From: Clostridia bacterium
Lineage (GTDB): Bacteria; Bacillota; Clostridia; Oscillospirales; RGIG8002
DNA: 64,000 nt
Assembly (NCBI GenBank): GCA_017620395.1
Contig: JAFZQJ010000022.1
Coordinates: 72,977 to 136,976 of the forward strand
Direction: 5' to 3'
The translations under genes were made by a program, and so were the position numbers. Positions 1 to 32,640 of this stretch are shown here, piece after piece. The first letter of the stretch is position 1, and every line of letters starts with the position of its first letter. Below the pieces are notes generated by a model. That model did not search any database, was not told where the DNA came from, and saw only the letters and a list, made by a program, of their open reading frames with translations.

Positions 1-2
1 TG

Positions 3-863
3 CTTTATTCATATTACAAGCAGACCGGCAAAACCGAAATAATAAAGAACGAACTTGAATCCGTAATGCGTATCATTATCGATCAGTGGAGGATCGAGCA
101 GCGGCACGAAGAGAATTCGCCTTATTACTTCATTCGTCTCGAAGACGGACTCACCCCGGACGACTTTCCGTACGGCGGCAGAGGCGCGCCCGCAGCGTAT
201 ACCGGTATGACGCGTTCCGCCTTCAGACCGAGCGACGACGACTGCGTTTACGGTTATCTAACCGCTTCCGAAATGTTTGCAACTGTCGTTCTCGGTTACG
301 CCGCGGAAATGCTCCGCAGCGTTTGCGGCAACGAATCGCTCGCGTCCGAATGCGACGCGCTACGAAATGAAATAGACGACGGGATACGGAACTACTGCAT
401 CGTTGAGCACGAAAAATACGGCAGGATCTACGCGTGCGAAACCGACGGAATGGGCCGTTACTCCATGATCGACGACGCAAACGTGCCCAGTCTGCTGTCT
501 ATACCGTATATAGGATATTCCGCCGCCGACGATGAGATTTATCTCAACACCCGCCGTTTCCTGTTAAGCGCGGATAACCCTTATTACTACTGCGGTAAAT
601 ACGCCAGAGGCATCGGTTCGCCGCACACCCCTCATAATTATGTGTGGCATATGTCGCTTGCAATGCAGGGTTTGACCTCTAACGACGACGTCGAAAAACG
701 CGAAATGCTCGATATGATCGTTTCCACCGACGCCGGAAAACGTCACCTTCACGAAGGATTCGACGTTGACAATCCATGCAACTACACGCGTGAATGGTTC
801 ACCTGGCCGGAAGCGCTGTTCGCCGAGTTTGTTGAAAAATGCATAGACGGCGGTATTATATAA
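3..863 (+). CDS. Glycoside hydrolase family 125-like protein (exo-alpha-1,6-mannosidase family), C-terminal part; the 5' end lies outside the window
   Basis: Frame 3 is open from the window edge (LYSYYKQTGK... precedes the tracked Met at 66). Motifs RPSDDD, DDANVPSLLSIPYIGY, HTPHNYVWHMSLAMQG and TREWFTWPEALF resemble GH125/DUF1237 from memory. Confidence 0.6.
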   Translation, partial: LYSYYKQTGKTEIIKNELESVMRIIIDQWRIEQRHEENSPYYFIRLEDGLTPDDFPYGGRGAPAAYTGMTRSAFRPSDDDCVYGYLTASEMFATVVLGYAAEMLRSVCGNESLASECDALRNEIDDGIRNYCIVEHEKYGRIYACETDGMGRYSMIDDANVPSLLSIPYIGYSAADDEIYLNTRRFLLSADNPYYYCGKYARGIGSPHTPHNYVWHMSLAMQGLTSNDDVEKREMLDMIVSTDAGKRHLHEGFDVDNPCNYTREWFTWPEALFAEFVEKCIDGGII

Positions 864-938
864 ATATGAATGCGTTTTTCCGCTCCGGCGTGAGCATAAT
901 AATACAAACGCATTTTTTCAAATGATTATAAAAATGTC

Positions 939-967
939 TTGATATTATCATCATAATTTGATATACT
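939..967 (+). promoter_or_regulatory. Sigma-A type promoter for the lipid gene cluster
   Basis: TTGATA (939-944), a 17-nt spacer, then TATACT (962-967), in an AT-rich gap about 55 nt upstream of the ATG at 1021. Confidence 0.5.
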
Positions 968-1020
968 TTCTTTGAATATACAGTTATAATCTTACAGCGT
1001 CTGTTTAACCGGAGGAGCAA

Positions 1021-1749
1021 ATGAAGCTGTTAAGGAAGATATTCCCGAAATACGCGGTCATTCCCCTTTGGACCGTACTGGGTTTCAATATGCTTGCCTA
1101 TTACCTGCCGAAGCTGCTTTTACTGCTCGGCGTTATCGGTCCTCCGCATATGCTTGCGGAAGATACGACGGCAAACGTAAATTTGATATTTCTCGGCGTT
1201 GACGTCCCGCTCGTTCCCGTATTCATAATCATATACGTGCTTTCGTACGTGCAATGGGTCGTCGGCTTCACGCTTATCGCAAGGGAGAGCGAAGAACTCT
1301 GCTATCGCTTCATGACCGGAGAGATCATCGCGAAGTTCATTTCTCTGACGGTATTTATACTCTACCCGACGATGATGACGCGGCCGGAAATAACGCAGAC
1401 CGGTCCGTTTTATACGCTTGTCGGCTGGATGTATTTCATCGATACTCCGATGATCAACCTCTTCCCGTCGCTCCATTGCCTCGAAAGCTGGATGTGTTTC
1501 CGAGGGTCGCTCCATCTGAAAGGTATCAGAAAGTGGTACGCGCCGGTTTCCTTCGTATTCACGATGCTCGTGTTTGCTTCAACCGTACTGATACACCAGC
1601 ACGTTCTGATAGACATACCGGCCGGCGTGCTGGTCGCCGAGATCGGCCTTCTCATCTGCCGCTTGACACGCGCAGACCGGATCTTTGCGTCCATTAACAA
1701 AAAGCGCCTCGCAACAGACGCCCGAAAGGAAATGTCACTTGAGCAATAG
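1021..1749 (+). CDS. PAP2-superfamily membrane protein (SMS/IPC-synthase-like PAP2_C type phosphotransferase or phosphatase)
   Basis: Polytopic hydrophobic protein. FPSLHC resembles the PSGH-type C2 motif, and STVLIHQHVLIDIPAG resembles the S..(H)xxxD C3 motif (compare HYTxDV of sphingomyelin synthases). RBS GGAGGAG lies upstream of the ATG. Confidence 0.55.
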   Translation: MKLLRKIFPKYAVIPLWTVLGFNMLAYYLPKLLLLLGVIGPPHMLAEDTTANVNLIFLGVDVPLVPVFIIIYVLSYVQWVVGFTLIARESEELCYRFMTGEIIAKFISLTVFILYPTMMTRPEITQTGPFYTLVGWMYFIDTPMINLFPSLHCLESWMCFRGSLHLKGIRKWYAPVSFVFTMLVFASTVLIHQHVLIDIPAGVLVAEIGLLICRLTRADRIFASINKKRLATDARKEMSLEQ

Positions 1750-2830
1750 CCCGACTAACGAAAGCGAGAACGACGTAAAGCAACAGCGCGGCTCTCACCG
1801 CGTTCTGTGGTCTATTCTCTTTATAGTCATAGCGGCGCTCAGCGTGGTTGCCGTAACTTCCTTCAACCGCAACTTTCATTTCAGCGAGTTTTTCAAAAGC
1901 GCCACCTCCGCTTCTGCTCCGTGGATCGTCGCGGCGGTATGCGGCACGTTTGGATATATTCTGTTTGAAGCGCTTTCGCTGATGTATATATGCCGTTCCT
2001 TCGGATACGGAAGACGCCTGAAAAGCGGACTGCTCTACTCTTCAACCGGATTCTACTTTTCATCGATAACGCCGTCCGCGACCGGCGGTCAGCCTGCGCA
2101 GGCGTACGTAATGATAAAGGACGGTATCCCCGGAGTATTCGCCGCGATCGCGCTTCTCGTCAACCTGCTGATGTACACTCTTTCAATCGCGGTGCTCGGC
2201 ATCTTCGCTTTTATCGCACGGCCTTCGCTGTTTATGAAGTTCAGCGTTGTGTCCCGTATTATGATAATCGTCGGCACCGTCATACAGTTCACCCTCGCGT
2301 TGCTGGTGCTTATACTTTTGAAAAACAAAAAACTCCTTCACGGCATCGGCAGACGGCTGATCCACTTCATAGCGAAGCTGCATATCATACGCGACGAGGA
2401 CAAGCTGCAAAACACCTTCAGCGACAAAATGGCTGAATACGACAAATACGCGGAGTATCTCCACGGCAAGCGTCCGATGATGGCCAAAGTGCTCGGAATA
2501 AACATTTTGCAACGCGCTTCGGTCATCTCGGTAACGATGTTTACGTTCATCGCGCTGGGAGGACGCGGAGCCGAGATATTCAATATCTTCGTAATGCAGA
2601 TCTACGTTCTGCTTGGTTCGACCTTTGTGCCGATACCCGGCTCGATCGGCGTTACGGACTATCTGATGATTGACGGTTTCAGCAATCTTATAAAAAAATC
2701 GCCTGTAACGCCGGGAACGCTCGAGCTTTTGAGCCGAACGCTTTCATTCTACATCTGTGTGTTCGCATGCGGACTGTTTATGCTTTACATCTATTTCAAG
2801 GGGAGAAAAAACAATGATAGGAATATATGA
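1739..2830 (+). CDS. Flippase-like / lysylphosphatidylglycerol-synthase transmembrane-domain protein (UPF0104 family)
   Basis: Multi-pass membrane protein. It has a charged N-terminus, then WSILFIVIAALSVVAV, and the motif SSITPSATGGQP typical of the LPG_synthase_TM family. The tracked ORF starts at 1685, but the TTG at 1739 preceded by AAGGA (8-nt spacing) is the more likely start. The start is uncertain. Confidence 0.6.
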   Translation: MSNSPTNESENDVKQQRGSHRVLWSILFIVIAALSVVAVTSFNRNFHFSEFFKSATSASAPWIVAAVCGTFGYILFEALSLMYICRSFGYGRRLKSGLLYSSTGFYFSSITPSATGGQPAQAYVMIKDGIPGVFAAIALLVNLLMYTLSIAVLGIFAFIARPSLFMKFSVVSRIMIIVGTVIQFTLALLVLILLKNKKLLHGIGRRLIHFIAKLHIIRDEDKLQNTFSDKMAEYDKYAEYLHGKRPMMAKVLGINILQRASVISVTMFTFIALGGRGAEIFNIFVMQIYVLLGSTFVPIPGSIGVTDYLMIDGFSNLIKKSPVTPGTLELLSRTLSFYICVFACGLFMLYIYFKGRKNNDRNI

Positions 2831-3560
2831 CTACACCGTCATACTGACGTATCTGTCGCTGGCGTCCGCTACGCTCGGCACGATTATATCCCTGACGGGC
2901 AACGGCCATCCGTACATAGGGGCGTTCTTTTTGCTGTTCTGTGGACTCTGCGACGCGTTTGACGGAAAGGTAGCGAGAACAAAAAAGGACCGCACTGACA
3001 GCGGGCGCAAGTTCGGAATACAGATCGATTCGCTTTCCGACGTCGTCGCTTTCGGCGTTCTTCCCGCCTGCATCGGATACGCGGCGCTTAACACCTCCCC
3101 GCTTTTCCGCGGTATATATCCGCAGGCTTCCGCGGTCGAACCTCCCGCGATTTTTAAAGAGCTTTTCGGCGGAGTCGAATGGTATTTCATCGCGCTGAAA
3201 ATCGCCATTATCGCCGTACTCGTGCTTTTCTCGCTCGCGGCTCTGATACGCCTTGCATATTTCAACGTCAAAGAAGACGAGCGCATGCAGACCGCACCGG
3301 ATTCCCCGACGACGTATACCGGACTTCCCGTAACTTCGTCCGCCCTCATCTTCCCCACCGTTCTCCTTCTGCGCTATATCTTCGACCTCACGCTCGGCGT
3401 CGATTTGACTCCCCTGTATTTCGTTACTATGCTGATTACAGGTTATCTCTTCCTTGCGAAGTTCAGCTTCAAAAAACCGACGATGAAGCAGGTGTTGATA
3501 ATGGTCGCCATCGGCGCCATCGAGTTTATTGCGATATCTATACTGCTTATCTTCAATTAA
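2814..3560 (+). CDS. pssA: CDP-diacylglycerol--serine O-phosphatidyltransferase (CDP-alcohol phosphatidyltransferase family)
   Basis: Signature DAFDGKVAR-x8-GIQIDSLSDVVAFG matches D-G-x2-A-R-x8-G-x3-D-x3-D. The ATG at 2814 is preceded by GGGGAG. It sits immediately upstream of psd. Confidence 0.8.
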   Translation: MIGIYDYTVILTYLSLASATLGTIISLTGNGHPYIGAFFLLFCGLCDAFDGKVARTKKDRTDSGRKFGIQIDSLSDVVAFGVLPACIGYAALNTSPLFRGIYPQASAVEPPAIFKELFGGVEWYFIALKIAIIAVLVLFSLAALIRLAYFNVKEDERMQTAPDSPTTYTGLPVTSSALIFPTVLLLRYIFDLTLGVDLTPLYFVTMLITGYLFLAKFSFKKPTMKQVLIMVAIGAIEFIAISILLIFN

Positions 3561-3574
3561 GGAAGTGAGCCGTC

Positions 3575-4399
3575 ATGGGCGAAAGCAAATCCGTAAGAAT
3601 CCTTTATAACAACGCATTCGGCCGTCTGTGCTTGAAAATTATCAAGCGCAGATGGCTTTCGCGTCTTTGCGGCAAATATCTGGATTCCCGCCTCTCCAAG
3701 CATTTGATTAATAAGTTCGTCACGAAGAACAACATAGACTTGTCGCAGTACTACGCCGATGATTTCAAATGCTTCAACGACTGCTTCTGCAGACAGATAC
3801 GCGAAGGATACCGTCCGATTGATACGGATCCTCACTCGCTTATTTCGCCGTGCGACGGACTGCTGACTGCTTACAGCATAAGCGGCGATACCGTGCTTCC
3901 GGTCAAGCAAAGCAGATACACGGTATCCTCCCTGCTCCGTGACGATAATCTCGCGCGAAGATTCGAAGACGGTCTGTGCCTCGTATTCCGTCTCTGTGTT
4001 GATAACTATCACCGCTACTGTTATTTCGACGGCGGCAAAAAAGACGATAACGTCTTTATCCCCGGATTTCTGCATACGGTAAGGCCTACGGCGCTTGAAG
4101 CGCTGCCCGTGTTTATCGAGAACTGCCGCGAATACACTCTGATGCACACCGAAAACTTCGGAGACGCCGTGCAGATAGAGGTCGGCGCCATGCTCGTCGG
4201 CAAGATCGACAACTATCACGGCGTTCACGAATTCAGCCGCGGCGAAGAAAAAGGGCGTTTCTTATACGGAGGAAGCACCGTAATTCTCCTTCTCGAAAAA
4301 GGATGCGCTTCAGTTGACGGGGCGTTTAAGCTCGATTCCGGAGAAGAGATCCCGGTCGTGATGGGACAACGCATCGGACGCTCGTGTCAAAATGAGTAG
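3575..4399 (+). CDS. psd: Phosphatidylserine decarboxylase proenzyme
   Basis: SPCDG motif (LISPCDGLL) and the self-cleavage GST motif (FLYGGSTVILL) near the C-terminus. It is adjacent to pssA. Confidence 0.85.
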   Translation: MGESKSVRILYNNAFGRLCLKIIKRRWLSRLCGKYLDSRLSKHLINKFVTKNNIDLSQYYADDFKCFNDCFCRQIREGYRPIDTDPHSLISPCDGLLTAYSISGDTVLPVKQSRYTVSSLLRDDNLARRFEDGLCLVFRLCVDNYHRYCYFDGGKKDDNVFIPGFLHTVRPTALEALPVFIENCREYTLMHTENFGDAVQIEVGAMLVGKIDNYHGVHEFSRGEEKGRFLYGGSTVILLLEKGCASVDGAFKLDSGEEIPVVMGQRIGRSCQNE

Positions 4400-4474
4400 A
4401 TTTTTATATAAAGTTGTATAATCGTCATATAATTACACATCCGGTATTGCTATAATGCAGTCGTAAACTGAATA

Positions 4475-4570
4475 CTCTTCCGGCCCGGGAGAAGCGCGGT
4501 GAGAATCCGCCGCAACAGCCATTACCGTATCTGACGGAAACGTCACAAGTCGGGTCGCCTACCGGAAGAG
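4475..4570 (+). promoter_or_regulatory. Cobalamin (B12) riboswitch aptamer, compact form
   Basis: P1 pairs CTCTTCCGG (4475-4483) perfectly with CCGGAAGAG (4562-4570). The core GGGAGAAGCGCGGTGAGAATCCGCCGCAAC resembles the conserved GGGAA..GGTGnnAATCC..GCAAC. There is a GACG-GAAA-CGTC GNRA hairpin (4533-4544) and a B12-box-like AGTCGGGTCGCCTACC (4549-4564). A candidate extended -10 promoter, TGCTATAAT, lies at 4448-4456. The downstream genes are typical B12-regulon genes. Confidence 0.7.
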
Positions 4571-4657
4571 AGTTCGGCTCCGTTTTATCGGAGAACGCTT
4601 TTGGGCAGCGAAGAGCGTGAACATTCCGCCGATTCAATCGGTCTTGTTTTGTTATAC

Positions 4658-4690
4658 GCCTTTTCTGCTCAAACAGCGGAAAAGGCTTTT
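4658..4690 (+). terminator. Intrinsic terminator forming the riboswitch expression platform
   Basis: GCCTTTTC (4658-4665) pairs with GAAAAGGC (4679-4686) and is followed by TTTT. It lies directly upstream of the GGAGG RBS and the ATG at 4710. Confidence 0.6.
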
Positions 4691-4709
4691 ATAAATGGAG
4701 GAAAAAACA

Positions 4710-6371
4710 ATGAAACACATCAAGAGAATCCTGACCGTTCTGCTCGCCCTCGCTATAGTTACAGCCGCGCTGCCTATGGCGGTATTTGCCGGCGCGCAGC
4801 ATCAGATGACCGTCACTCTTCGCATCGAAGGTGCGGCGCAGAACTTTTACTATGATACGCTGACTATTCAATATTCCTCGGCGAACCTCACCGTTCAGGA
4901 TCTGATCATATACGCCGACAATAACAGCGACGCCATTACCGTCGTCGGCGCGACCGGGTCCGCCCCGTATATAACGGACATCAACGGCGACGTTGCCGGC
5001 GCGATGGGCGGGTATTCCGGATGGCTCTACACCGTGAACGGCGAGGAGCCGCCCGTCGGAGTCAACAATTACAATCTGAAAGAAGGCGACAGCGTCGTCT
5101 TCTACTACGGCGATCCTTACGGAGTCGGTATGCAGTACCCTGTTCCCGACGTTTCCGATATCGCGAACGGCGTTATCCGCTTCACGAGCATGGATACAAC
5201 TTATGATTCCGACTGGAACCCCGTTGTTTCCGAAAACCCCGTTGCCGATATGACCGTCGTCTTCGGCGGCGAAACGCCCGTTACTTACGTTACCGACAAA
5301 GACGGAAAGATCACAATAGAGGAACAGTATCTCACCGCCGGCGAGCATTCTCTCTCGATCGACAAAAAGGGCGACAAGGGCGTTCCGCTCGTCCTGCGCC
5401 TCGCGCCCGACTATAAAGTTTCCGTACCCGAGAAACCCAAAACGATGACCGTCAAGCTTCGCATCGAAGGCATAAACGAAAACCTTTTCTATGACGACGT
5501 CACGGTATCGTACACGTCCGATAGTCTCACTGTTCAGGATATGATCGTCTACGCCGACGAACAGAACGAAAATCTGACCGTAGTCGGAGCCGACGGCGCC
5601 TCCCCTTACATTACAAGCATCAACGGTGACGCCGCGGGCACCTTCAGCGGCTGGGACGGCTGGCTGTTCACCGTCAACGGAATCGAAGCCGCAACCGGAA
5701 TAAACGGCGTCAATCTCGCAGACGGAGACTCAGTCCTTTTCTACTACGGCGATCCCTACGGAGTCGGTATGCAGTACCCTGTTATCGACGCAGCCGAAAT
5801 CGACAGCGGAGTTATCCGCTTTACCAGCAACGACACGACGTATGACGGCGACTGGAATCCCATCGTTACCGCCAACCCGGTCGTCGGTATGACGGTCACC
5901 ATCGGAGAGGTCACGTTCACCACCGACGAAGATGGGAAAATCGCATTTGACAACGCTCTCCTGCCCGCCGGCAAGTACTCGATCTCTATTGACAAAAAAG
6001 CCGAAAACGGTCTGCCGCTCATCCTCCGTTTCGCTCCCGACGCCGAGATCGACATCCCCGAGCTTCCCGCGGCAAACATCCTCCCCGGCGATATGGACGA
6101 CGACGGCGAGATTACCGTCAACGACGCTTTAAGGGTTCTTCGTATAGCCGCAAAGCTTGTTCCCGTCACCGGTGAAGCGCTCGCGATCTGCGATATGGAC
6201 GGCGACGGCGAGATCACCGTCTCCGACGCGCTCTACGTCCTGCGCATCGCCGCGAAGCTTATTCCCGCTCCCGGCGGCCAACAGCCCGGCGGTGACGAAC
6301 CCGGCACGGGCAAACCCGACTCCGGTCTGACCGGCGTAATGCACGGCGACACCGAAAGAGTTATAAAATAA
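4710..6371 (+). CDS. Secreted protein with two tandem DUF4430 (transcobalamin beta-domain-like) modules and a C-terminal type-I dockerin
   Basis: Signal peptide MKHIKRILTVLLALAIVTAALPMAVFA. The DUF4430 motif occurs twice: GWLYTVNGEEPPVGVNNYNLKEGDSVVFYYG and GWLFTVNGIEAATGINGVNLADGDSVLFYYG. The dockerin has two Ca-loop/helix repeats, DMDDDGEITVNDALRVLRIAAKL and DMDGDGEITVSDALYVLRIAAKL (nt 6087-6260). The GGAGG at 4697-4701 favours the ATG at 4710 over 4695. Confidence 0.75.
   Translation: MKHIKRILTVLLALAIVTAALPMAVFAGAQHQMTVTLRIEGAAQNFYYDTLTIQYSSANLTVQDLIIYADNNSDAITVVGATGSAPYITDINGDVAGAMGGYSGWLYTVNGEEPPVGVNNYNLKEGDSVVFYYGDPYGVGMQYPVPDVSDIANGVIRFTSMDTTYDSDWNPVVSENPVADMTVVFGGETPVTYVTDKDGKITIEEQYLTAGEHSLSIDKKGDKGVPLVLRLAPDYKVSVPEKPKTMTVKLRIEGINENLFYDDVTVSYTSDSLTVQDMIVYADEQNENLTVVGADGASPYITSINGDAAGTFSGWDGWLFTVNGIEAATGINGVNLADGDSVLFYYGDPYGVGMQYPVIDAAEIDSGVIRFTSNDTTYDGDWNPIVTANPVVGMTVTIGEVTFTTDEDGKIAFDNALLPAGKYSISIDKKAENGLPLILRFAPDAEIDIPELPAANILPGDMDDDGEITVNDALRVLRIAAKLVPVTGEALAICDMDGDGEITVSDALYVLRIAAKLIPAPGGQQPGGDEPGTGKPDSGLTGVMHGDTERVIK
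4806..6080 (+). repeat. Intragenic tandem duplication with a 639-bp period (two roughly 213-aa modules)
   Basis: Module 1 starts at MTVTLRIEG (4806) and module 2 at MTVKLRIEG (5445). A 45-nt block, TTCTACTACGGCGATCC[T/C]TACGGAGTCGGTATGCAGTACCCTGTT, occurs at 5100-5144 and 5739-5783 with 44/45 identity, offset by exactly 639 nt. Confidence 0.9.
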
Positions 6372-6387
6372 TCTGACGGAGTCCGAC

Positions 6388-8205
6388 TTGAAAAAGACGC
6401 TTTTCAAAAAATGTATAGCATGCCTGCTGCTGATACTCGTTATCGCGGCAGGCTTTGCCTTGCCCGCAAGCGCGTATTCATCACAAGGCTCAAAGCTCTT
6501 TTCCCTGCTCGCGAACGAAGGCGGATCGCTTCAGGGATATATTGATAACGTTCTTTCGAAAAACGTCGGTACGCACGACGCGGACTGGCTGTTCATCGAC
6601 CTTATGAGGCACGACGGTTCGCTGAACGGAAACAAATACGCGGCAGCGCTTGACGCTTATACTTCCGCAAACGCCCTGACCAAACCCACCGATTATGAAC
6701 GTATCGCGATTGCTTACACGGCCGCCGGAATTTACAACGATTTTGTCGGATCCGCCCTTGAAGCGGAATTAAAAAACAACACTATAAACGCCTTGTTCTT
6801 TGAATTGATCCTTCTTGATTGCGGAGGATACGAAAGCACCAAGAACAAAAGAGAAGGCTTGATAGATGAAATACTCGGCAGCCAGATGTCCGATAACGGC
6901 TGGACTCTTTCCGGCCCGTCGGACGTCGATATGACGGCTATGGCACTTCAGGCGCTTGCTCCGTACAAAAGCAGAAGCAACGTTGCGTCCGCTGTAGAAA
7001 GAGCCCTCGGCTTCCTTTCCGGGAAACAAACCGACAACGGAGATTTCCGCGGCTTCCGGAACACGCTCAGCTGCGAGAGTACCGCGCAGGTCATAATCGC
7101 CTTAACGTCGCTCGGCATTGATCCCGCATCCGACTCGCGCTTTATAAAAAACGGCGCGACCGCTTACGACGGTCTTCGCCGCTATCAGCTTCAAGACGGC
7201 TCATACTGCCATGTAACGGAAATCGCAAAGCGGGATAATATCGCGACCGAGCAGGCGGCGCGCGCGATCGTCGCCGCTGAACGCTTCTCCTCCGGAAAGT
7301 CTTCGTTCTTTTCGTTCAAAAAGCCCGCCACAGCAGAGCCCGACCCGCCGTCCGTCGTAACTCCGGATCATGACTCTTCCGATGATAACCGTGACAACTC
7401 GGGCAATCAGGAAGCTTCACAGCCGGGAGGGTCAACGCCCGAAGGCGGCTCAGGCAACGGCAGCGACGGTACGGAGTCCGATTCCGAGGCCTCGTCCGAT
7501 GAGGCCTCTTCCGGCCAATCGATCGGCGACAGCTCGTTTTACTCGTCCTCGGAATACTCGTCGGAATCAATTATCGGAAGCGTTTCTTCCGGTTCCGATC
7601 CAAGCGATACGACGGGCAACGTCTCTTATAAGTTCTACGTTTGCGGCGCGATAGGGCTTCTTTTCGCGGCCGTCTGCGTGATTCTTGCGATCAAGAAAAA
7701 AGCGTCGCTAAAGAATGTCATACCTATCGCCGTAGTCGCGATCCTGCTCATCTGCGGCGTTCTGCTTCTCAACTTCACTTCCGTCAAAGATTACTATTCC
7801 GTCAACTTGAGCAGCGCCGGTGAAGGTGACAATACCGTCACTATCAGCATCAGCTGCCGCATACTCGAGGGTGTTGAAGAGAACATACCCGAGGACGGAT
7901 ACATCCTCAAGCCGACTAAATACGTTATCAATGAAGGCGACACGGTCTTCGACGCACTGCTCGCGGTAACCCGCGCAAATCAGATAAAAATCAATTACAC
8001 GGGCAACGCCGGAGGGGTTCTGAGCGTATACGTAAGCTCAATCGCGGGTTTCTCGGAGATGCAGTACGGCGCTTTGTCCGGTTGGATCTACCGCGTGAAC
8101 AAATACACTCCGGACGTCGGCTGCGGCAGCTACGATATCAAGGACGGCGACGTTATCGAATGGGTTTACACCCTCGATCTCGGAAAGGACGCTGAAAACG
8201 GATGA
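6388..8205 (+). CDS. Transcobalamin-like surface protein: N-terminal prenyltransferase/terpene-cyclase-like alpha/alpha toroid, Ser/Asp/Gly-rich linker, two TM helices, C-terminal DUF4430
   Basis: TTG start with a signal peptide (LLILVIAAGFALPASA). Repeated QxxDGxW/F-type motifs appear (QMSDNGWT, KQTDNGDF, QLQDGSY). A low-complexity acidic/Ser region spans about nt 7330-7620. TM helices are YVCGAIGLLFAAVCVILAI and VIPIAVVAILLICGVLLLNF. The C-terminal DUF4430 motif is GWIYRVNKYTPDVGCGSYDIKDGDVIEWVY. Confidence 0.7.
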   Translation: MKKTLFKKCIACLLLILVIAAGFALPASAYSSQGSKLFSLLANEGGSLQGYIDNVLSKNVGTHDADWLFIDLMRHDGSLNGNKYAAALDAYTSANALTKPTDYERIAIAYTAAGIYNDFVGSALEAELKNNTINALFFELILLDCGGYESTKNKREGLIDEILGSQMSDNGWTLSGPSDVDMTAMALQALAPYKSRSNVASAVERALGFLSGKQTDNGDFRGFRNTLSCESTAQVIIALTSLGIDPASDSRFIKNGATAYDGLRRYQLQDGSYCHVTEIAKRDNIATEQAARAIVAAERFSSGKSSFFSFKKPATAEPDPPSVVTPDHDSSDDNRDNSGNQEASQPGGSTPEGGSGNGSDGTESDSEASSDEASSGQSIGDSSFYSSSEYSSESIIGSVSSGSDPSDTTGNVSYKFYVCGAIGLLFAAVCVILAIKKKASLKNVIPIAVVAILLICGVLLLNFTSVKDYYSVNLSSAGEGDNTVTISISCRILEGVEENIPEDGYILKPTKYVINEGDTVFDALLAVTRANQIKINYTGNAGGVLSVYVSSIAGFSEMQYGALSGWIYRVNKYTPDVGCGSYDIKDGDVIEWVYTLDLGKDAENG

Positions 8206-9080
8206 CCGATATCAAACGCCTTCACCCGACGGCTCTTTTCATATACTTTCTGACGGTAATACTGCTGCCGATGTTCGTGCTCGACCCGGTTATACTCGCC
8301 CTATCTCTGCTCGGGGCAACGCTTTGCCTCATATGCGTCAGAAAAAGCGGAGAAAAAAGCGGAATACTGCTCTATTCCCTCCTCTTCTTCGGGATAACCG
8401 TTATAAACCCGCTTATTTCGCACAACGGCGACACCGAGCTGTTTTTTATCAACAACAAGCCGGTAACGCTTGAGGCCGTCATATACGGCGCGGTCTCGGC
8501 GGTAATGATAATCGGAATACTGATCTGGTTCCGTTCGTTTTCCGCGGTAATGACCGGTGAAAAGCTGCTGTATCTTGTCGGAAGCGTGCTTCCTAAGACT
8601 TCCGTCATACTGTGCTCCGCGCTGCGGTATATCCCGCTTTTCAAAAAGCAGCACGAAAAGATCAGAGCTGCGCAGACGGCAATGGGACTTTATACCGCCG
8701 ATAACATCACGGACAAGCTGAAAGGCTCCGCGCGCGTGTTTTCGATACTCACCACCTGGTCGCTCGAAAACTCGATCGACACCGCCGATTCAATGAAAGC
8801 GCGCGGCTACGGATTGAAGCACAGGACGTCATTCACTCTTTATAAGTATCACGCTTCGGATATAATCTTCACGATAATAACCGTACTTCTCGCCGCTTCG
8901 GCGATAACCTTCGCCGCGGTCGGCGGACTGTCAATGCAATTCTATCCGAACGTCGCGCTTCCCGAAACGACAACGCTGATAGTCGCTTCATATATTTCCT
9001 ACGGGGCGCTTGCGCTTCTGCCCGCCGTCCTGGAGATAACGGAGATACTCAAATGGAGATACTTAACGTCGAGAATCTGA
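8202..9080 (+). CDS. ecfT: ECF transporter transmembrane (T) component, CbiQ/EcfT family
   Basis: Polytopic protein of typical size. Its start overlaps the upstream stop as ATGA. It precedes ECF-type ATPase and S-component genes. Confidence 0.7.
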   Translation: MTDIKRLHPTALFIYFLTVILLPMFVLDPVILALSLLGATLCLICVRKSGEKSGILLYSLLFFGITVINPLISHNGDTELFFINNKPVTLEAVIYGAVSAVMIIGILIWFRSFSAVMTGEKLLYLVGSVLPKTSVILCSALRYIPLFKKQHEKIRAAQTAMGLYTADNITDKLKGSARVFSILTTWSLENSIDTADSMKARGYGLKHRTSFTLYKYHASDIIFTIITVLLAASAITFAAVGGLSMQFYPNVALPETTTLIVASYISYGALALLPAVLEITEILKWRYLTSRI

Positions 9081-10678
9081 CATTTAAATATCCGAAATGC
9101 GACCGCGAGGCGCTAAGCGACGTTTCGTTCAGCGTAAACGCCGGAGATTTCATTGTGCTTTTCGGTGAGACGGGCTGCGGCAAAACCACGCTTCTGCGTA
9201 TGCTGAAACGCGAGCTTTCACCTGCCGGCGAAAAATCCGGCAGCATACTTTACAAGGGCACCGAGCTTTCCGGCCTTGACGCCAAAACCGCCGCGACCGA
9301 AATCGGCTTCGTTATGCAGAAGCCGGAAACTCAAATCGTCACCGACAAGGTATGGCACGAACTTGCGTTCGGACTTGAAAGCGCGGGAGCTTCAAAAAGC
9401 GCGATAAACCGCCGCATCAGCGAAATGGCGAGCTACTTCGGCATCGGCAACTGGTTCCTGCGCGACGTATCCGAGCTTTCCGGTGGTCAGAAGCAGCTTC
9501 TCAACCTCGCTTCCGTTATGGTAACGCAGCCGAAACTCCTGCTTCTCGACGAACCGACGAGCCAGCTCGATCCTATCGCCGCGTCCGAATTCATATCGAC
9601 TCTTGCCAAACTCAACCGCGAGCTTTCTCTGACGATAATCATTTCCGAGCACCGCCTCGAAGATCTCTTTCTCGCCGCGGACAAGGCGATAGAGCTTAAA
9701 GACGGCAGGCTTATCGCGTACGGAGAGCCGCGCTCTGTCGCCGCGGGAATGGACAAGAGCGACTCTATGGAAGCCGCGATGCCCTGCGCGGTGCGCGTCT
9801 GCAAGGCGCTCGATGCGGACTGCGAATACCCGCTGACCGTCAAGGAAGGCCGCGCGTTTATAGAGAAATACGGCAACGAAACCAAAGAACTGCCCGCGCC
9901 GGAGCGTACTTCCGGCGAAGAAGCGCTGCGTTTTTCACGCGTCTTCTTCCGCTACGGAAGAGAGCTTCCCGACGTGCTCTGCGATCTCGATCTTTCCGTG
10001 AAAGAAGGCGAAATATACTGCCTCCTCGGCGATAACGCCTCAGGTAAAACGACGGCACTATCCGTCGCGGCGGGACTGCTTAAAGCCTATTCCGGCAAAG
10101 TCGAGGTTTTCGGCAAAAAGATTTCCGCCTATAAAAGCGGAGAGCTATACAAAAACTGCGTCGCGATGCTGCCGCAGGACGTGCAGACGGTCTTCCTGCA
10201 TGAAACGATACGCGATGACCTCGCAGAAATAAGCGAAGAACTCTCTTCGCTCCCGTTCGACGTGACGCCTTATCTGGATAAGCATCCTTACGACCTGAGC
10301 GGCGGCGAACAGCAGCTCTGTGCGCTCGCGAAAACGCTTCTGCTCAAGCCGCGCCTGCTTCTGCTCGACGAGCCGACGAAAGGCGTCGACGCCGCGGCGA
10401 AAAGGCGCGTGATCGAAATACTCCGCAAGCTAAAATCAGACGGCGTGACTACTCTGCTCGTCACGCACGACGTCGAATTCGCCGCCTCCTGCGCGGACAG
10501 ATGCGCCTTGTTTTTCAACGGCTCCGTCGCCGCAGTCGAAGACCCCGAAACCTTCTTCTCGGAAAACAACTTTTATACGACCGCCGCAAGCAGAATGAGC
10601 CGCGGGCATTACGACCGCGCCGTAACCGCGGACGACGTCGTGAAGCTTTGCAGAATAAACGGAAGGAAGCCGGCATGA
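9053..10678 (+). CDS. Fused tandem ECF/ABC transporter ATPase (EcfA-EcfA' type)
   Basis: Two complete ABC cassettes. The first has Walker A GETGCGKTT, signature LSGGQKQ and Walker B LLLLDEPTS. The second has GDNASGKTT, LSGGEQQ and LLLLDEPTK. Confidence 0.9.
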   Translation: MEILNVENLTFKYPKCDREALSDVSFSVNAGDFIVLFGETGCGKTTLLRMLKRELSPAGEKSGSILYKGTELSGLDAKTAATEIGFVMQKPETQIVTDKVWHELAFGLESAGASKSAINRRISEMASYFGIGNWFLRDVSELSGGQKQLLNLASVMVTQPKLLLLDEPTSQLDPIAASEFISTLAKLNRELSLTIIISEHRLEDLFLAADKAIELKDGRLIAYGEPRSVAAGMDKSDSMEAAMPCAVRVCKALDADCEYPLTVKEGRAFIEKYGNETKELPAPERTSGEEALRFSRVFFRYGRELPDVLCDLDLSVKEGEIYCLLGDNASGKTTALSVAAGLLKAYSGKVEVFGKKISAYKSGELYKNCVAMLPQDVQTVFLHETIRDDLAEISEELSSLPFDVTPYLDKHPYDLSGGEQQLCALAKTLLLKPRLLLLDEPTKGVDAAAKRRVIEILRKLKSDGVTTLLVTHDVEFAASCADRCALFFNGSVAAVEDPETFFSENNFYTTAASRMSRGHYDRAVTADDVVKLCRINGRKPA

Positions 10679-11349
10679 GAAAGAAGCTCTCGATCGCGAT
10701 CCTGCTGCTTTCCGTACCGATAAGCGTACTGCTCGCGGCGACCGTCTTTTCCGATAAGAGTTACGCCTATCTCTCGCTCGTTATCGTCGTCATATCGCTC
10801 GCGGCGCTCTTCATTTCGTTTGAGAAAAAAGAAAACAGCGCAAGGCAGCTTATCGTGATCTCGATAATGTGCGTGCTGTCGATCGTGGGACGGCTCGTTT
10901 TCGCGGTCATACCCGCGTTCAAGCCGGTAACGGCGATAATAATACTGCTGTCGATGTATTTCGGCGGCGAAGCGGGTTTTATCTGCGGCGCGATGACCGC
11001 GCTGATATCGAACTTCTACTTCGGGCAGGGCCCGTGGACGCCGTATCAGATGCTCGCGTGGGGACTCGTCGGACTCTTCGCCGGCCTGCTCGCCCCTCTG
11101 CTTCGCAGGAATCTGATAATTACCTGCGTTTACGGCGCGCTGTCGGGTGTGATATTCTCGCTGATAATGGATATTCAAACGGCGATGTGGTACACGAACG
11201 AATTCAACCTCGCCGTATACGCGACGAAGATCGGCACTTCCCTGCCGTTCACGATAATTTACGCGGTATCGAACGTCATCTTCCTGCTGCTCCTCGCGAA
11301 ACCTATAGGCAAAAAGATAGAGCGATTGAAGATCAAATACGGAATATAA
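10675..11349 (+). CDS. ECF transporter substrate-specific (S) component, presumably for cobalamin or a corrinoid
   Basis: The ATG at 10675 overlaps the ATPase stop (ATGA). The upstream part of tracked ORF 10501 is Arg-rich out-of-frame read-through of the ATPase gene. It is a six-TM-type small protein with the FGQGPWTPYQMLAWG motif typical of the ECF S family (PF12822-like, from memory). Confidence 0.7.
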   Translation: MRKKLSIAILLLSVPISVLLAATVFSDKSYAYLSLVIVVISLAALFISFEKKENSARQLIVISIMCVLSIVGRLVFAVIPAFKPVTAIIILLSMYFGGEAGFICGAMTALISNFYFGQGPWTPYQMLAWGLVGLFAGLLAPLLRRNLIITCVYGALSGVIFSLIMDIQTAMWYTNEFNLAVYATKIGTSLPFTIIYAVSNVIFLLLLAKPIGKKIERLKIKYGI

Positions 11350-11356
11350 ATAAACA

Positions 11357-11392
11357 ACAAAACGTCCGCCTGTGACCCAGGCGGACGTTTTT
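11357..11392. terminator. Bidirectional intrinsic terminator between convergent genes
   Basis: AACGTCCGCC (11361-11370) pairs with GGCGGACGTT (11380-11389). It is flanked by an A-run on the left and a T-run on the right. Confidence 0.8.
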
Positions 11393-11414
11393 AATCTGTT
11401 GACCGAAACGGAAC

Positions 11415-12335
11415 CTACGCAAGCTTCGCGGATATGCGGAGAACAATCAGCGCGTCGGCGACCGTAACTTTGCCGTCGCCGTCTTTGTCATAAAAGGCGG
11501 AGGCAATTCCCGGCGTGGGTTCAGCAAGCTTCGCAGCGACGCGAAGAACACGCAGCGCATCCGATACCGAATACTCAAAAGATACACTGGGTTCACCTGC
11601 CCATACTGCAGACGCGCTTGTGTGCGCGCTTTCAACATAAGGATTATCCTTAAGTAACTCGGCCGCGCCAACAGACGCTTCTTCTGTTTTTTCTTTCAGC
11701 GAAACGGCGAAAGTGATTCCTACGCGCGAAAGATAATCCGGTTTCACCTCTTCCTTCGGCACTTCTCCTTGCGCAGTGATTATCGAAAGCACGGAATCCC
11801 CATACGACTCGATCTCTATTTCCGGAAGTATATCGCGAAGATCAGGATAAGGATCGCCACCGGGGCCTTCATAAGTGTAATACTGCTCCTTCAGCGTTAC
11901 TATCACTCGGCCGGGCGTTATACCGCCGAGCACCGGTCTCGCCGCAAAGAGATACTGATTATCGTTCAGAATTGCCATCGCCTCTAGGACTGCTTCGCGA
12001 GTTTTTTCACGAAGTTTAACGCGATATACAGTCCTTTGCTTGCCGTAATTCTTCGGCGGAACGATCTCGGTATCGGTTGCCGGATATCTGCCGGTCAGTT
12101 CGTATTCTTCAATATCCAGCTCGGGAAACAACTCGGTAATATCCCCGATGAATATGCCCTTCAGATACAACCTGAGTTCTCCGGGATGAAAGACAGTGTT
12201 TTCATAGTTTTTATACCACTGATCCTCCAGAGGCGTAAAACCATCGCCTTCCGCAAACGCCGTCACGGGAACGACCGCCGCCATAAGCGCAAAACAAAGC
12301 ACTACCGCAATCAAGCGTTTGAACAGTCTTTTCAT
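11415..12335 (-). CDS. Secreted dockerin-containing protein with two tandem roughly 110-aa modules (possibly peptidase-propeptide/I9-like)
   Basis: AAGGAG RBS before the ATG at 12335. Signal peptide MKRLFKRLIAVVLCFALMAAVVPVTAFA. The internal repeat is seen in LFPELDIEEYE...VKLREKTREAVLEAMAILNDNQYLFAARP versus ILPEIEIESYG...VSLKEKTEEASVGAAELLKDNPYVESAH. The C-terminal dockerin reads SVSDALRVLRVAAKLA...YDKDGDGKVTVADALIVLRISAKLA. Confidence 0.6.
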   Translation of the reverse strand: MKRLFKRLIAVVLCFALMAAVVPVTAFAEGDGFTPLEDQWYKNYENTVFHPGELRLYLKGIFIGDITELFPELDIEEYELTGRYPATDTEIVPPKNYGKQRTVYRVKLREKTREAVLEAMAILNDNQYLFAARPVLGGITPGRVIVTLKEQYYTYEGPGGDPYPDLRDILPEIEIESYGDSVLSIITAQGEVPKEEVKPDYLSRVGITFAVSLKEKTEEASVGAAELLKDNPYVESAHTSASAVWAGEPSVSFEYSVSDALRVLRVAAKLAEPTPGIASAFYDKDGDGKVTVADALIVLRISAKLA

Positions 12336-12395
12336 AATTATCACTCCTTTCTTAATAATCAATATCGTTAAAGGATGGTGCACCGTCCGATAACT

Positions 12396-13289
12396 CTAAT
12401 ACTTCTTATCTATGACCAAATAGCACAATCCGCCCTTTTTATCAAGACAAACCTCCACTTTACCCTCTTCAACCGCAAAAGTAATATAGCGTTTCCCGCT
12501 TAAAAAATAATCTGAAATATCGGCGTTCTCGAGCACGTCCATTGCGATATCCGTATCAGCTACAACGCTTTTTGCAATTTCAACGGCTTTTTTCTTGCTT
12601 ATTACATTAGCGAAATGTGATTGGTTTTGATTAACACTCGAGTCATATCTCATCAAGCCGCCTGAAAGAGCGTCGACCGAAACCGTGCTGCCGTCGGATC
12701 CGACGTAACGGTCGATGACGTAACTGCTGCCGGAATCGACGACCGCGGTCGAGCTTTGATAATCAAAGGTCTTGTATTCGCCGTTTATGCGGTATGTGAC
12801 CGCGGGCATATTATCCTTCACGAAATCGCCTTCGGGCTGCTCGGGGACGTCGCTGCCGGAGGGAGTTTCGGAGGATGACGCTGGATCATCCGGGCTCTCG
12901 GCCGAGGAGCCGCTCGGCGCTTCGCTGCCGCGGGAGCGGCTTTCGCCGCTTTGTTCCGACGAGGCGTTGTTTTCGCTATCAGGCTCGGAGCTGCTTTCCG
13001 GCTCGGAGCTGTCGGATTCGCTGCTGTCGACGGGAGCGACTATACCGGAATTGCCGCCGTTCGGGGCGACGAAGTTTTCGCTGCGGAAGGAACCGATCGC
13101 TTTCAGCGCGAGCGGCGTTCCGGCGGCGATCACGGCTATCGCGACCGCAGCAGCCGCCCACTTCAGCCACGGCCTTTTCACAAACGGCGTAACGCGCACG
13201 GCGCCCGCGCTTTGCGGGGCTTCGTCCGCCGCTTCGATAAGGTCAAAATCCATCAGCCCTATCGTTTCATTTATAAGCTCATAATTCAT
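12396..13289 (-). CDS. Single-pass membrane protein, putative anti-sigma factor partner
   Basis: Its start overlaps the sigma gene's stop by 11 nt. It has a short cytoplasmic N-terminus, a TM helix WLKWAAAAVAIAVIAAGTPLAL, a Ser/Glu/Pro-rich linker and a C-terminal globular domain. No zf-HC2 motif is visible, so the role is inferred from position only. Confidence 0.45.
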   Translation of the reverse strand: MNYELINETIGLMDFDLIEAADEAPQSAGAVRVTPFVKRPWLKWAAAAVAIAVIAAGTPLALKAIGSFRSENFVAPNGGNSGIVAPVDSSESDSSEPESSSEPDSENNASSEQSGESRSRGSEAPSGSSAESPDDPASSSETPSGSDVPEQPEGDFVKDNMPAVTYRINGEYKTFDYQSSTAVVDSGSSYVIDRYVGSDGSTVSVDALSGGLMRYDSSVNQNQSHFANVISKKKAVEIAKSVVADTDIAMDVLENADISDYFLSGKRYITFAVEEGKVEVCLDKKGGLCYLVIDKKY

Positions 13290-13848
13290 AATCCGCTTCC
13301 TCTTTCAAATACTCAGCGAGTGAATCCCGCGTGCGCTTGAGCATCATCTTGACCTTGCTTTTGCCGAAGCCACAGCGCTTGCATATCTCGTCTATCGAAT
13401 CGTAATACCAGTATCGCCGGATGAATACGTTTCGTTCGGTCGTTCCAAGAGAGCGGACGAAATCCGAGATCAAGCTCGCAAGCTCGCGGGCGCCGACCTC
13501 TCCGTCTACGTCGCGGAAAGCCGCGATCTCGCCGAGCTCATCGAGCGAGCCGAGCGACTTCGGCAGGCGCTTTTTCGCGTTATTGCGCAGGCGCCTGTTC
13601 ACCGAGGCGTTGCGGACGAGCATACCGAGATACGCTTTCAGGTTTTCCGGGCGTTTGGGAGGTATGCTGTTCCACGCGGAGAGAAGCGCGTCGTTGACGC
13701 ATTCCTCGGCGTCGCGTTCGTCACCCAGCACGTTCTCCGCTATGTATCGGCAATAAGCGCCGTATTCCTTTTGCGCTTCCGCGACCGCGCTCTCATCTCT
13801 GTTCCAAAATAAAGCGACTATGCTCTTGTCGTTCACGCCGCACTCCAT
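13279..13848 (-). CDS. RNA polymerase sigma-70 family (ECF-type) sigma factor
   Basis: Size and layout fit region 2 (DAEECVNDALLSAWNS) and region 4 with an HTH (YWYYDSIDEICKRCGFGKSKVKMMLKRTRDSL). Confidence 0.75.
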   Translation of the reverse strand: MECGVNDKSIVALFWNRDESAVAEAQKEYGAYCRYIAENVLGDERDAEECVNDALLSAWNSIPPKRPENLKAYLGMLVRNASVNRRLRNNAKKRLPKSLGSLDELGEIAAFRDVDGEVGARELASLISDFVRSLGTTERNVFIRRYWYYDSIDEICKRCGFGKSKVKMMLKRTRDSLAEYLKEEADYEL

Positions 13849-13924
13849 TCCCCTTTGCTGAAAGGCCTTTCACTCTAATACACAGAAAATACACTTGTTT
13901 GGTCACAAATTTTTCCGCTTTTTT

Positions 13925-27219: not shown

Positions 27220-27262
27220 AAGTATTCCTCCATATTTTTGATGTCGCTTTACGCGTATTGAT

Positions 27263-27291
27263 ATTATAACTCTATTGAGTATTATTGTCAA
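27263..27291 (-). promoter_or_regulatory. Consensus sigma-A promoter of the zinc-ribbon gene, with an operator in the spacer
   Basis: On the minus strand: TTGACA (27286-27291), a 17-nt spacer, then TATAAT (27263-27268). The spacer contains ACTCAATAGAG (complement of 27270-27280). Confidence 0.7.
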
Positions 27292-29880: not shown

Positions 29881-30369
29881 GTGACCGAATACGCTTCAAG
29901 GCGGTTTTCCGCGATCTACGAGAAGTACCGCGTGGTCGTTTATTACACGGCGCTGCGCGTGACGCGCTCGAAGGAAGCCGCCGAAGACGTCATGCAGTCC
30001 GTCTTCCTCGAGCTAATGGACAACTGCGAAAAGAACGGCCGCATCCCCGACGAGGTCGGCGGCTGGCTCGTGAAGCTCGCGAAGTTCCGTTCGCTCGACC
30101 ACGTCCGCGGCGAAAGCCGCACCGTTCCCGAGGAGCTGCCGGAAGTGCACGCCGGCGACGCCTCCGCCGATACGGAAAGATCGGTGATGATACGCGGCGC
30201 GCTCGAAACGCTCTCGGATGAGGAGCGCGAGATCTTCGATCTGAAGGTGCTCGGCGGCTTCAAGCATCGCGAGATCGCGCAGATCGTTTCGTCGAACCCG
30301 TCCACCGTCCGCTGGCAGTACGCGCAGATAGTCAAGAAGCTCAAGCCGCTGCTCGCCGACCTGAATTAA
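29881..30369 (+). CDS. ECF-type sigma-70 family RNA polymerase sigma factor
   Basis: GTG start 9 nt after GGAGG. Region 2 is EDVMQSVFLEL...WLVKLAKFRSLDHVR. Region 4 is LSDEEREIFDLKVLGGFKHREIAQIVSSNPSTVRWQY. Confidence 0.8.
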   Translation: MTEYASRRFSAIYEKYRVVVYYTALRVTRSKEAAEDVMQSVFLELMDNCEKNGRIPDEVGGWLVKLAKFRSLDHVRGESRTVPEELPEVHAGDASADTERSVMIRGALETLSDEEREIFDLKVLGGFKHREIAQIVSSNPSTVRWQYAQIVKKLKPLLADLN

Positions 30370-30387
30370 CGATTGGGAGGTTTTGTT

Positions 30388-32487: not shown

Positions 32488-32527
32488 TACCCGCGTTCAA
32501 GCTTTTCAAATTTCTCCTTTACAAAAA

Positions 32528-32552: not shown

Positions 32553-32640
32553 GTTACGCTCTTTTGTTGCGCGCTTTTTACGGACAAGTGTTCTATACGG
32601 ACGAGCCCCGGCATATCATTTACAAAAACGGGGTGAGTGT

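Follow-up and report, generated by a model that had tools for sequence, protein, structure and literature searches.

In a 64,000-nt stretch of the genome of a rumen Clostridia bacterium (contig JAFZQJ010000022.1; hereafter the window), the gene at 4710-6371 on the forward strand (gene 1) encodes a secreted protein of 553 aa, in which a signal peptide is followed by two units of a DUF4430 module and an immunoglobulin (Ig)-like domain, a dockerin, and a C-terminal tail. Gene 1 is co-transcribed with gene 2 and the genes for the T, A-A′, and CbrT-like S components of an energy-coupling factor (ECF) transporter behind a riboswitch and a terminator. We propose, with a probability of about 0.6, that its product is the surface-tethered extracellular 'antenna' that captures corrinoids for this B12-repressed uptake operon of the ECF-CbrT type. 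We are confident that gene 1 belongs to an operon for B12 uptake; we put the odds that the protein is bound to a cohesin at about even. A first-pass annotation of this DNA had described a dockerin-tagged protein with transcobalamin-like domains and suggested its display on a cohesin scaffold or the cell surface. The observation itself was confirmed by the open reading frame (ORF), Pfam, and a structural model, and the interpretation was borne out in part.

DUF4430 (PF14478) was matched twice in gene 1 by Pfam (E 5.2e-25, 88.1 bits versus a cutoff of 23.8). In the AlphaFold2 model of the protein, built with 93 homologues as input (mean predicted local distance difference test score, pLDDT, of 89.8), a helix at residues 2-19 is followed by a beta-grasp at 31-~140, a beta-sandwich at 145-240, a second beta-grasp at 244-~353, a second beta-sandwich at 357-450, a three-helix dockerin at 460-516, and a disordered Gly/Pro tail at 517-553. 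When this model was compared with the PDB using Foldseek, the top fold matches were the beta domains of transcobalamin (TC), haptocorrin, and intrinsic factor (IF). Human TC-beta (5no0 and 5np4) was matched with a target-normalised TM-score of 0.76-0.77, a root mean square deviation (rmsd) of 2.7 Å, and 23% identity, and further matches of the beta-grasp were 4kki, 2pmv, and 3u7z. Both structures show the isolated human TC beta domain, 5no0 in the apo form and 5np4 with cyanocobalamin. Thus, the two modules are transcobalamin-like by fold, as the first-pass annotation had proposed. The model has no helical alpha6/alpha6 toroid, the domain from which a transcobalamin forms the upper face of its binding site, and gene 1 does not have the alpha plus beta make-up of a eukaryote-type transcobalamin; the protein is therefore a beta-only relative and no transcobalamin. 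The isolated TC-beta binds cyanocobalamin and cobinamide and is purified with cobalamin bound, TC-alpha is purified without it, and the assembly of TC-alpha with TC-beta requires cobalamin (PMC5599065).

The features of gene 1 could be placed as follows. The N-terminus (4710-4790), MKHIKRILTVLLALAIVTAALPMAVFA before GA, was read by eye as a putative signal peptide without a lipobox Cys and corresponds to helix 2-19 of the model. The two DUF4430 or TC-beta-like beta-grasp modules (4800-5129, ~aa 31-140, and 5439-5768, ~aa 244-353) alternate with two Ig-like spacer domains (5142-5429, ~aa 145-240, and 5778-6059, ~aa 357-450), both of which are beta-sandwiches in the model. The first spacer has weak Big_13/Big_1 matches in Pfam and matches to adhesin Ig repeats, and the second has a weak Ig-like match in Pfam. 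The repeat unit is DUF4430 plus Ig, and its two copies are 59% identical over 211 aa. The first-pass annotation rightly described a secreted protein with two DUF4430 modules but overlooked the two Ig-like domains (~95 aa each); likewise, it located both dockerin repeats correctly (nt 6090-6158 and 6192-6260) but not the 37-aa disordered tail beyond them. This Gly/Pro-rich tail (6261-6368) ends in GVMHGDTERVIK and has a pLDDT of <50. Its ending, GVMHGD..VIK, is kept in the orthologues P0007, P0008, and P0009, and a tail of this kind is unusual behind a C-terminal dockerin.

Four genes lie downstream of gene 1 on the same strand, overlapping or almost abutting. Gene 2 (6388-8205, +; 605 aa) is predicted from Pfam, an AlphaFold2 model, and Foldseek to encode a membrane-tethered, complete transcobalamin-like protein. 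Its model (pLDDT 83.6) contains a signal or anchor segment at residues 2-22, an alpha-alpha toroid at 29-301, a Ser-rich disordered linker at 328-410, a transmembrane hairpin at 414-460, and a DUF4430 beta-grasp at 483-603. The top 15 PDB fold matches were all full-length TC, IF, or haptocorrin covering both domains (E down to 2e-7; target-normalised TM-score 0.55-0.64), and terpene cyclases and prenyltransferases ranked after them. Therefore, gene 2 appears to encode a complete transcobalamin-like binder that is split by a membrane tether. This agrees with the earlier proposal that the next gene encodes a membrane-anchored protein; the hand-over of ligand to that protein, also proposed, is made plausible by its complete architecture, while the transfer itself is something we infer.

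The remaining three genes encode the parts of an importer. The product of 8202-9080 (+) is an ECF T component of the CbiQ family (Pfam CbiQ, E 4e-9), and 9053-10678 (+) encodes fused ECF ATPases A-A′ with two ABC_tran matches in Pfam; ECF_ATPase_1 and ECF_ATPase_2 were the top NCBIfam models, both below their equivalog cutoffs. The last gene, 10675-11349 (+), encodes a CbrT-like S component (Pfam ECF-ribofla_trS / ECF_trnsprt), for which CbrT (6fnp_A) was the only sequence match in the PDB, a distant one with E 6.4e-8. Gene 1 thus heads an operon in which all parts of the ECF-CbrT type (T, A-A′, and a CbrT-homologous S) are present, and the distant similarity to CbrT suggests a B12-type substrate for the S component. 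CbrT in ECF-CbrT of Lactobacillus delbrueckii imports cobalamin and cobinamide, and hemin is no competitor (PMC5997447). The order of the operon is kept in the distant relatives L001, L005/L006, and L007/L008. L001, a metagenome-assembled genome (MAG) from water-buffalo rumen with 69% protein identity, was the single relative found in the genome-contig scan.

Judged from its sequence, the leader of the operon is a divergent cobalamin-clan riboswitch that would act by transcription termination, and we infer both its ligand and this mechanism. In a local Rfam scan, RF01482 (AdoCbl) was matched at 4461-4600 (+) with 29 bits versus a cutoff of 50 (E 0.002), and the putative aptamer at these positions contains a conserved loop, GGUGAGAAUCC, in addition to GCCAUUACCGUAU and a 'B12 box' (AAGUCGGG). 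The same RNA is located ahead of orthologous operons, the copy of L001 scoring 30.6 bits. Among ten related loci, the riboswitch matched only RF01482 or RF01689, with 25-41 bits and always below threshold; with RF00174, these two families make up the cobalamin riboswitch clan of Rfam (CL00101). All the fetched relatives share ...RGUGAGAAUCYG..GCAAC.GCCAUUACCGUAU...AAGUCGG... and a later hairpin with a GGG-initial loop. A metagenome scan with the leader core added 37 loci, which together with the earlier loci represent 26 distinct variants, and GGUGAGAAUCC, GCCAUUACCGUAU, and AAGUCGG are invariant.

We then examined covariation in a 21-sequence alignment of the leader RNA variants. RNAalifold predicted 17 pairs, 9 of which show compensatory changes. 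The helices were paired in 95.5% of cells compared with 23-45% when the partners were slid, and the covariation score was 0.434 compared with ≤0.13; none of 500 shuffles reached the observed score. The helices that covary do not fall on bases prescribed by the search pattern, except where the pattern has N. We assign the RNA to the cobalamin clan because of the clan-specific sub-threshold matches in many loci, this covariation, and the recurrence of the RNA before orthologous operons. These results support the earlier statement that gene 1 comes first behind a B12 riboswitch, clan membership being indicated by covariation and the sub-threshold match to RF01482 (29 versus 50 bits). Since the Rfam thresholds miss this riboswitch subtype in all loci examined, B12 regulons are probably under-called in rumen and gut Oscillospirales.

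Two further elements were recognized in the leader. The second conserved hairpin (4596-4617, +), CGCUUUU-GGGCAGCG-AAGAGCG, always has a GGG-initial loop, and its stem covaries by eye with a varying alignment register (CGCUUUU/AAGAGCG, CACUUUU/AAGAGUG, and ACUUUC/GAAAGU). This hairpin probably belongs to the expression platform, and its loop is perhaps a kissing-loop partner. The intrinsic terminator (4658-4696, +) is located between the aptamer and the ribosome-binding site and consists of a 12-bp stem (4658-4686) followed by the UUUUAUAAAU T-run. The minimum-free-energy fold of 4461-4700 contains both the terminator and the 4596-4617 hairpin (z = -4.8). A sigma-70 promoter scan found no promoter; a candidate TGnTATAAT-like extended -10 element at ~4448-4457 was noticed by eye, also in relatives.

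The genes that follow this type of leader RNA are mostly DUF4430 or corrinoid genes and, where the downstream sequence sufficed, fall into four groups. In the first, the gene for a DUF4430 plus Ig protein precedes those for a toroid/DUF4430 protein and CbiQ, to which the ATPase and S genes may be added. The second comprises a small DUF4430 lipoprotein and a 180-aa membrane protein, the third an LRR (leucine-rich repeat)/Ig protein followed by a cadherin-like DUF4430 protein, and the fourth, represented by L044, a corrinoid protein (PF02310/PF02607) and a URO-D-type methyltransferase. In L044, the riboswitch is followed at 1666-4944 (-) by genes for a putative lipoprotein, a 181-aa membrane protein, the corrinoid protein (B12-binding plus B12-binding_2), the URO-D-type methyltransferase, and finally a protein that begins with a P-loop and looks CobW-like by eye. 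In L010 (7710-8692) and also in L020/L022, L024, L030, L031, and L036, the riboswitch precedes a ~145-aa DUF4430 lipoprotein (GLWENATY) and a ~180-aa membrane protein without a Pfam family. Perhaps this membrane protein is an S component standing alone, in which case the two genes would form a minimal pair for capture and uptake.

The C-terminal module of gene 1 is a real two-repeat dockerin, as had been annotated. Dockerin_1 (PF00404) was matched with 28.9 bits versus a cutoff of 22.9 over profile positions 1-52 of 57. The module (6084-6260, +) contains two near-identical 23-residue repeats of a Ca loop and a helix, DMDDDGEITVNDALRVLRIAAKL at nt 6090-6158 and DMDGDGEITVSDALYVLRIAAKL at 6192-6260, which can be divided into DMDDDGEITVND + ALRVLRIAAKL and DMDGDGEITVSD + ALYVLRIAAKL. 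Both loops show the Ca2+-binding pattern by which dockerins were recognized here, namely ~22-residue tandem repeats with D/N at loop positions 1, 3, and 5 and D at position 12, followed by a helix. In the model, the dockerin helices span residues 470-480, 488-494, and 504-514, and Foldseek matched the module to solved dockerins of type I, namely 2ccl_B of C. thermocellum Xyn10B (target-normalised TM-score 0.84, rmsd 1.6 Å, 61 columns) as well as 4uyq_B and 4fl4_D. In PDB sequence searches, 2ccl_B and the R. bromii Amy16 dockerin region (9qf9_A) matched it over its full length, whereas calmodulin EF-hands matched single loops only.

To place this module among the anchors of related proteins, we took a census of the C-termini of the best 120 homologues of gene 1. 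A sortase-type signal (PxTG[DE], hydrophobic stretch, and basic tail) was found in about 61-80 of them, a dockerin in 29, and SLH repeats, counted from Pfam, in ~7. It therefore seems that several surface anchors can replace one another on this protein and that the dockerin of gene 1 is one of them, for which the strongest argument is that the same cargo is displayed via three wall-anchoring devices. Anchor swapping among homologues (sortase signal, dockerin, and SLH) thereby supports the surface display that had been suggested. In addition, gene 1-type cargo carries two unrelated dockerin sequence types, DxDxDGEITVxDALxVLRIAAKL as in gene 1 and a ruminococcal type. The dockerin of P0112, from a Ruminococcus relative, matches the R. 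flavefaciens ScaH dockerin 8ajy_B (E 3.6e-11). This implies that dockerins were fused to the same cargo at least twice independently.

The distribution of the gene 1 dockerin subtype was analyzed by an exhaustive profile search against 1.84 billion representative proteins, used instead of a word-indexed search with the gene 1 dockerin alone, which had returned only 14 short fragments. At E ≤ 1e-3 the profile matched 14,858 proteins, and at E ≤ 1e-10 it matched 1,179; the module was C-terminal in nearly all of them. A Pfam scan of the cargo in a sample of 47 long carriers from other organisms found BspA-type LRR in 17, Big_3 in 8, cleaved-adhesin in 5, GH16 in 3, WD40 in 3, and Cohesin in 2. 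One carrier, P0268, contains Cohesin at aa 35-184 (31.3 bits versus a cutoff of 24.1) and the dockerin at aa 968-1018. This cohesin is divergent: the single stretch is not significant alone while the whole protein is above the cutoff, and a sequence search of the PDB found no match to it. Thirteen further carriers obtained by jackhmmer from the P0268 N-terminus were not counted as cohesins, since two of them, P0266 and P0299, have no Pfam cohesin. The sequence data suggest that, at least in some organisms, this dockerin subtype is part of systems with cohesins, and that it is used mainly on non-enzymatic surface proteins. The premise of the first-pass annotation that dockerins normally tether glycoside hydrolases does not fit a subtype with GH16 on only 3 of 47 carriers, nor R. 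bromii, where 22 of 26 dockerin proteins are not amylases (PMC4611034). To call gene 1 an exceptional non-carbohydrate cargo was likewise an overstatement, since non-enzyme cargo of dockerins is already established. Apart from such cargo, P0255, P0257, and P0258 consist mostly of 9-14 tandem copies of the subtype, and P0255 (762 aa) has 9 Dockerin_1 stretches.

These observations can be combined into a working scheme. When corrinoids are scarce, the riboswitch would permit transcription read-through, and the gene 1 protein would leave the cell but stay on its surface through the dockerin. As receptor we envisage a cohesin, or a protein resembling one, whose gene would lie elsewhere in the genome; most relatives would use a sortase signal or SLH repeats for the same purpose. 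By analogy with isolated human TC-beta, each beta module may bind cobalamin or cobinamide independently, and the Ig spacers would set the distance of corrinoid capture from the membrane. A loaded module would then pass its ligand inward to the gene 2 protein, possibly by ligand-dependent docking on the alpha toroid of gene 2, comparable to the cobalamin-dependent assembly of TC-alpha with TC-beta. From the gene 2 protein, the ligand would reach CbrT and be imported by the ECF module. Only tentatively do we extend this scheme to the idea that some rumen and gut Oscillospirales build a cohesin-scaffolded, dockerin-borne TC-beta antenna, which would form a 'split transcobalamin' in trans with the gene 2 toroid and relay its ligand to ECF-CbrT.

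Several results weigh against corrinoid capture by a surface-tethered gene 1 protein. At the gathering threshold, Rfam gave no match in the whole window or in seven related loci. Only fold comparison led to transcobalamin, which was not among the PDB sequence matches of gene 1, gene 2, or a 22-sequence profile of the DUF4430 modules; in the model, the modules of gene 1 are accordingly 'transcobalamin-like' at the level of the Pfam family and the fold, with ~23% identity. Gene 2 already carries a beta domain of its own, and the need for extra beta modules and for assembly in trans is speculative for this reason. On the 545-kb scaffold L003, a one-module dockerin-tagged DUF4430 gene (8001-8969) has its own riboswitch and no adjacent transporter, and therefore a capture protein can be encoded apart from the importer; this gene is flanked by two BspA-type LRR proteins. 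A search for cohesins, confined to the genes of the 64-kb window and to the fetched loci, found none. Finally, heme uptake has been reported for a homologous operon, Lsa1836-1840 of Lactobacillus sakei (bioRxiv 10.1101/864751).

With ECF S, A-A′, and T together with secreted TC-alpha-like and TC-beta-like proteins, that operon corresponds in its parts to the operon of gene 1, so that the system in the window could take up heme or another tetrapyrrole instead of corrinoids. We consider this improbable. The operon here follows a riboswitch of the cobalamin clan, and in L044 an RNA of this type is found before the corrinoid-protein/methyltransferase cluster. Hemin does not inhibit CbrT (PMC5997447), the closest solved relative of the S component, and it was by docking that heme was assigned to the binding proteins of L. 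sakei. The alpha and beta proteins of L. sakei are separate small proteins without a dockerin or duplication, and the word 'riboswitch' does not occur in the preprint. Still less probable is a structural or adhesive surface protein in which DUF4430 and Ig repeats serve without any small-molecule ligand. The SLBB superfamily does include sugar- or cell-surface-binding members as well as polysaccharide-export and ComEA members (PMC1796856), and Ig-like spacers and adhesin-like fold matches are present in gene 1, but the best structural matches are specifically the beta domains of TC, IF, and haptocorrin, and the gene occurs time and again in tight linkage with an ECF transporter of the B12 type and a riboswitch of the cobalamin clan.

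The attachment of the protein is a separate question, and its cargo and operon would stay the same if the module were a dockerin-like EF-hand pair that binds no cohesin. In that case, either the gene 1 product would be released and bind corrinoids as a soluble, diffusible protein, or the module would bind something else, such as a wall polymer, the gene 2 protein, or another copy of itself in a Ca2+-dependent manner. This explanation, which we regard as rather unlikely though much less so than the heme alternative, would account for the missing cohesin in the window and the fetched loci, the modest dockerin score (28.9 bits), and the 37-aa tail behind the module. By sequence, each half of the module resembles calmodulin EF-hands to the same degree as the entire module resembles dockerins, and most carriers of the subtype are non-cellulosomal surface or adhesin proteins. 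In contrast, the matches to solved cohesin-binding dockerins, in both repeats and in the fold, are full-length ones, and the orthologous cargo is otherwise always anchored by a sortase signal, SLH repeats, or a transmembrane segment. The subtype is joined to a Cohesin domain on one polypeptide in 2 of 47 carriers, and a shared receptor is suggested by the recurrence of the same module on another protein encoded 5 kb away.

Proteins of this type were predicted in 2007. Burroughs, Balaji, Iyer, and Aravind described extracellular transcobalamin-like SLBB proteins in CbiO/CbiQ operons and proposed them to be cell-surface B12 scavengers (PMC1796856). Like gene 1, these are secreted TC-beta-like beta-grasp proteins fused to Ig-fold domains, in addition to which fusions with further kinds of surface domain were described, and their operons often contain a second SLBB paralogue in addition to ECF-type ATPase and T genes. 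The word 'dockerin' is absent from that paper, to which gene 1 adds the dockerin fusion and the tandem duplication; in contrast to the 2007 systems, the riboswitch control of the gene 1 operon is backed by covariation. A full-text literature search found no paper joining DUF4430 with dockerin, and no dockerin-tagged B12 binder appears in the titles and abstracts of the literature naming dockerin together with cobalamin or B12. Thus, gene 1 is new only in its tandem duplication and in the dockerin anchor, which recurs in 29 of 120 homologues and in two types.

The whole architecture of alpha toroid and beta domain in human TC, IF, and haptocorrin is common to gene 2, and their beta-domain fold is common to the modules of gene 1. 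Gene 1 differs from them by having no alpha domain and gene 2 by the disordered linker and transmembrane hairpin between alpha and beta, and the sequence identity to genes 1 and 2 is ~10-23%. In ECF-CbrT (6FNP; Santos et al. 2018, PMC5997447), the S component is a distant homologue of that in the gene 1 operon. The T/A part of the L. delbrueckii transporter is a shared module, and no extracellular binding proteins are described in that study (PMC5997447), whereas the operon here has dedicated T and A-A′ genes and two extracellular transcobalamin-like proteins. R. bromii L2-63 has 26 dockerin proteins, only 4 of which are amylases and one of which is a 'putative terpene cyclase' (PMC4611034). 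As in gene 1, C-terminal dockerins are found there on secreted proteins other than glycoside hydrolases, and a terpene cyclase has the fold of the TC alpha domain. None of these proteins was interpreted there as a vitamin binder, and their cohesin partners, unlike that of gene 1, are experimentally known.

Among Gram-negative bacteria, BtuG and BtuH are surface B12-capture lipoproteins of Bacteroides, as reported by Wexler et al. (2018) and Putnam et al. (2022). The gene 1 protein would be a functional analogue of these proteins, which capture B12 at the surface with high affinity and are encoded with a riboswitch-controlled B12 transporter, but they differ in their unrelated folds (a beta-propeller in BtuG), their lipid anchor, and their setting in a Gram-negative outer membrane with the TonB system. 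B12 and its analogues are scarce and contested in the rumen and gut, and surface capture proteins decide who obtains B12, as with BtuG in Bacteroides. In Gram-positive anaerobes, an extracellular step before ECF-CbrT has so far only been predicted, and the one experiment on a homologous operon assigned heme. The locus described here is a compact system in which a riboswitch, a beta-only capture protein, a tethered complete transcobalamin-like protein, and an importer are united in one operon, and natural variants of the capture protein are available with sortase, SLH, or dockerin anchors. If the dockerin binds a cohesin, the cargo of cohesin-dockerin systems would extend to vitamin scavenging, and a small B12-binding module (~110 aa) would be ready-made for designer scaffolds or affinity capture. 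If the 'split transcobalamin' idea were also true, cohesin-dockerin assemblies would serve micronutrient piracy beside polysaccharide breakdown and adhesion, as a Gram-positive counterpart of BtuG in which dockerins were acquired at least two times independently.

The second dockerin protein of the window is encoded by the convergent neighbour of the operon (11415-12383, -), which is not a member of it. This secreted 322-aa protein matches no Pfam or NCBIfam family and ends in the gene 1 dockerin subtype, with 56% identity to the gene 1 dockerin and a degenerate first Ca loop (SVSFEYSVSDALRVLRVAAKL). The dockerin type therefore recurs in this genome. The gene adjoins an ECF-type sigma factor, and its counterpart in L001 (14951-15862, -) lies beside a subtilase.

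The open frame of gene 1 spans 4695-6371 (+) and is a real ORF, and its product is identical to P0001 of NCBI (553 aa), annotated as 'MAG: DUF4430 domain-containing protein [Clostridia bacterium]'. The ATG at 4710 is the likely start, as GGAGG is located 8 nt upstream (4697-4701) and all homologues begin with MK; the ATG at 4695 was dropped on the spacing to the ribosome-binding site and on the homologue N-termini. Antisense ORFs at 4689-5348, 5756-6217, and 6129-6407 (-) were not taken as genes but as shadow frames because the coding region of gene 1 is rich in G+C at third positions, the G+C content of the window being 57.7%.

The third-position G+C content is 0.51-0.71 for the genes at 1-13850 of the window, including the B12 operon, compared with 0.71-0.87 for nearly all genes at 14000-64000. 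Horizontal acquisition of a segment could be the reason for this contrast, or else unequal levels of expression. Between a gltX-like gene and ligA, a 409-aa ORF without a Pfam family (26062-27291, -) has a third-position G+C content of 0.45 in surroundings of ~0.8 and may be foreign DNA. Further downstream, 29881-37247 contains genes for an ECF sigma factor and a 704-aa Beta_propel protein followed by the spoIIIA operon (AA, AB, AC/AD, AE, and AH), which identifies the organism as a spore-forming member of the Clostridia.

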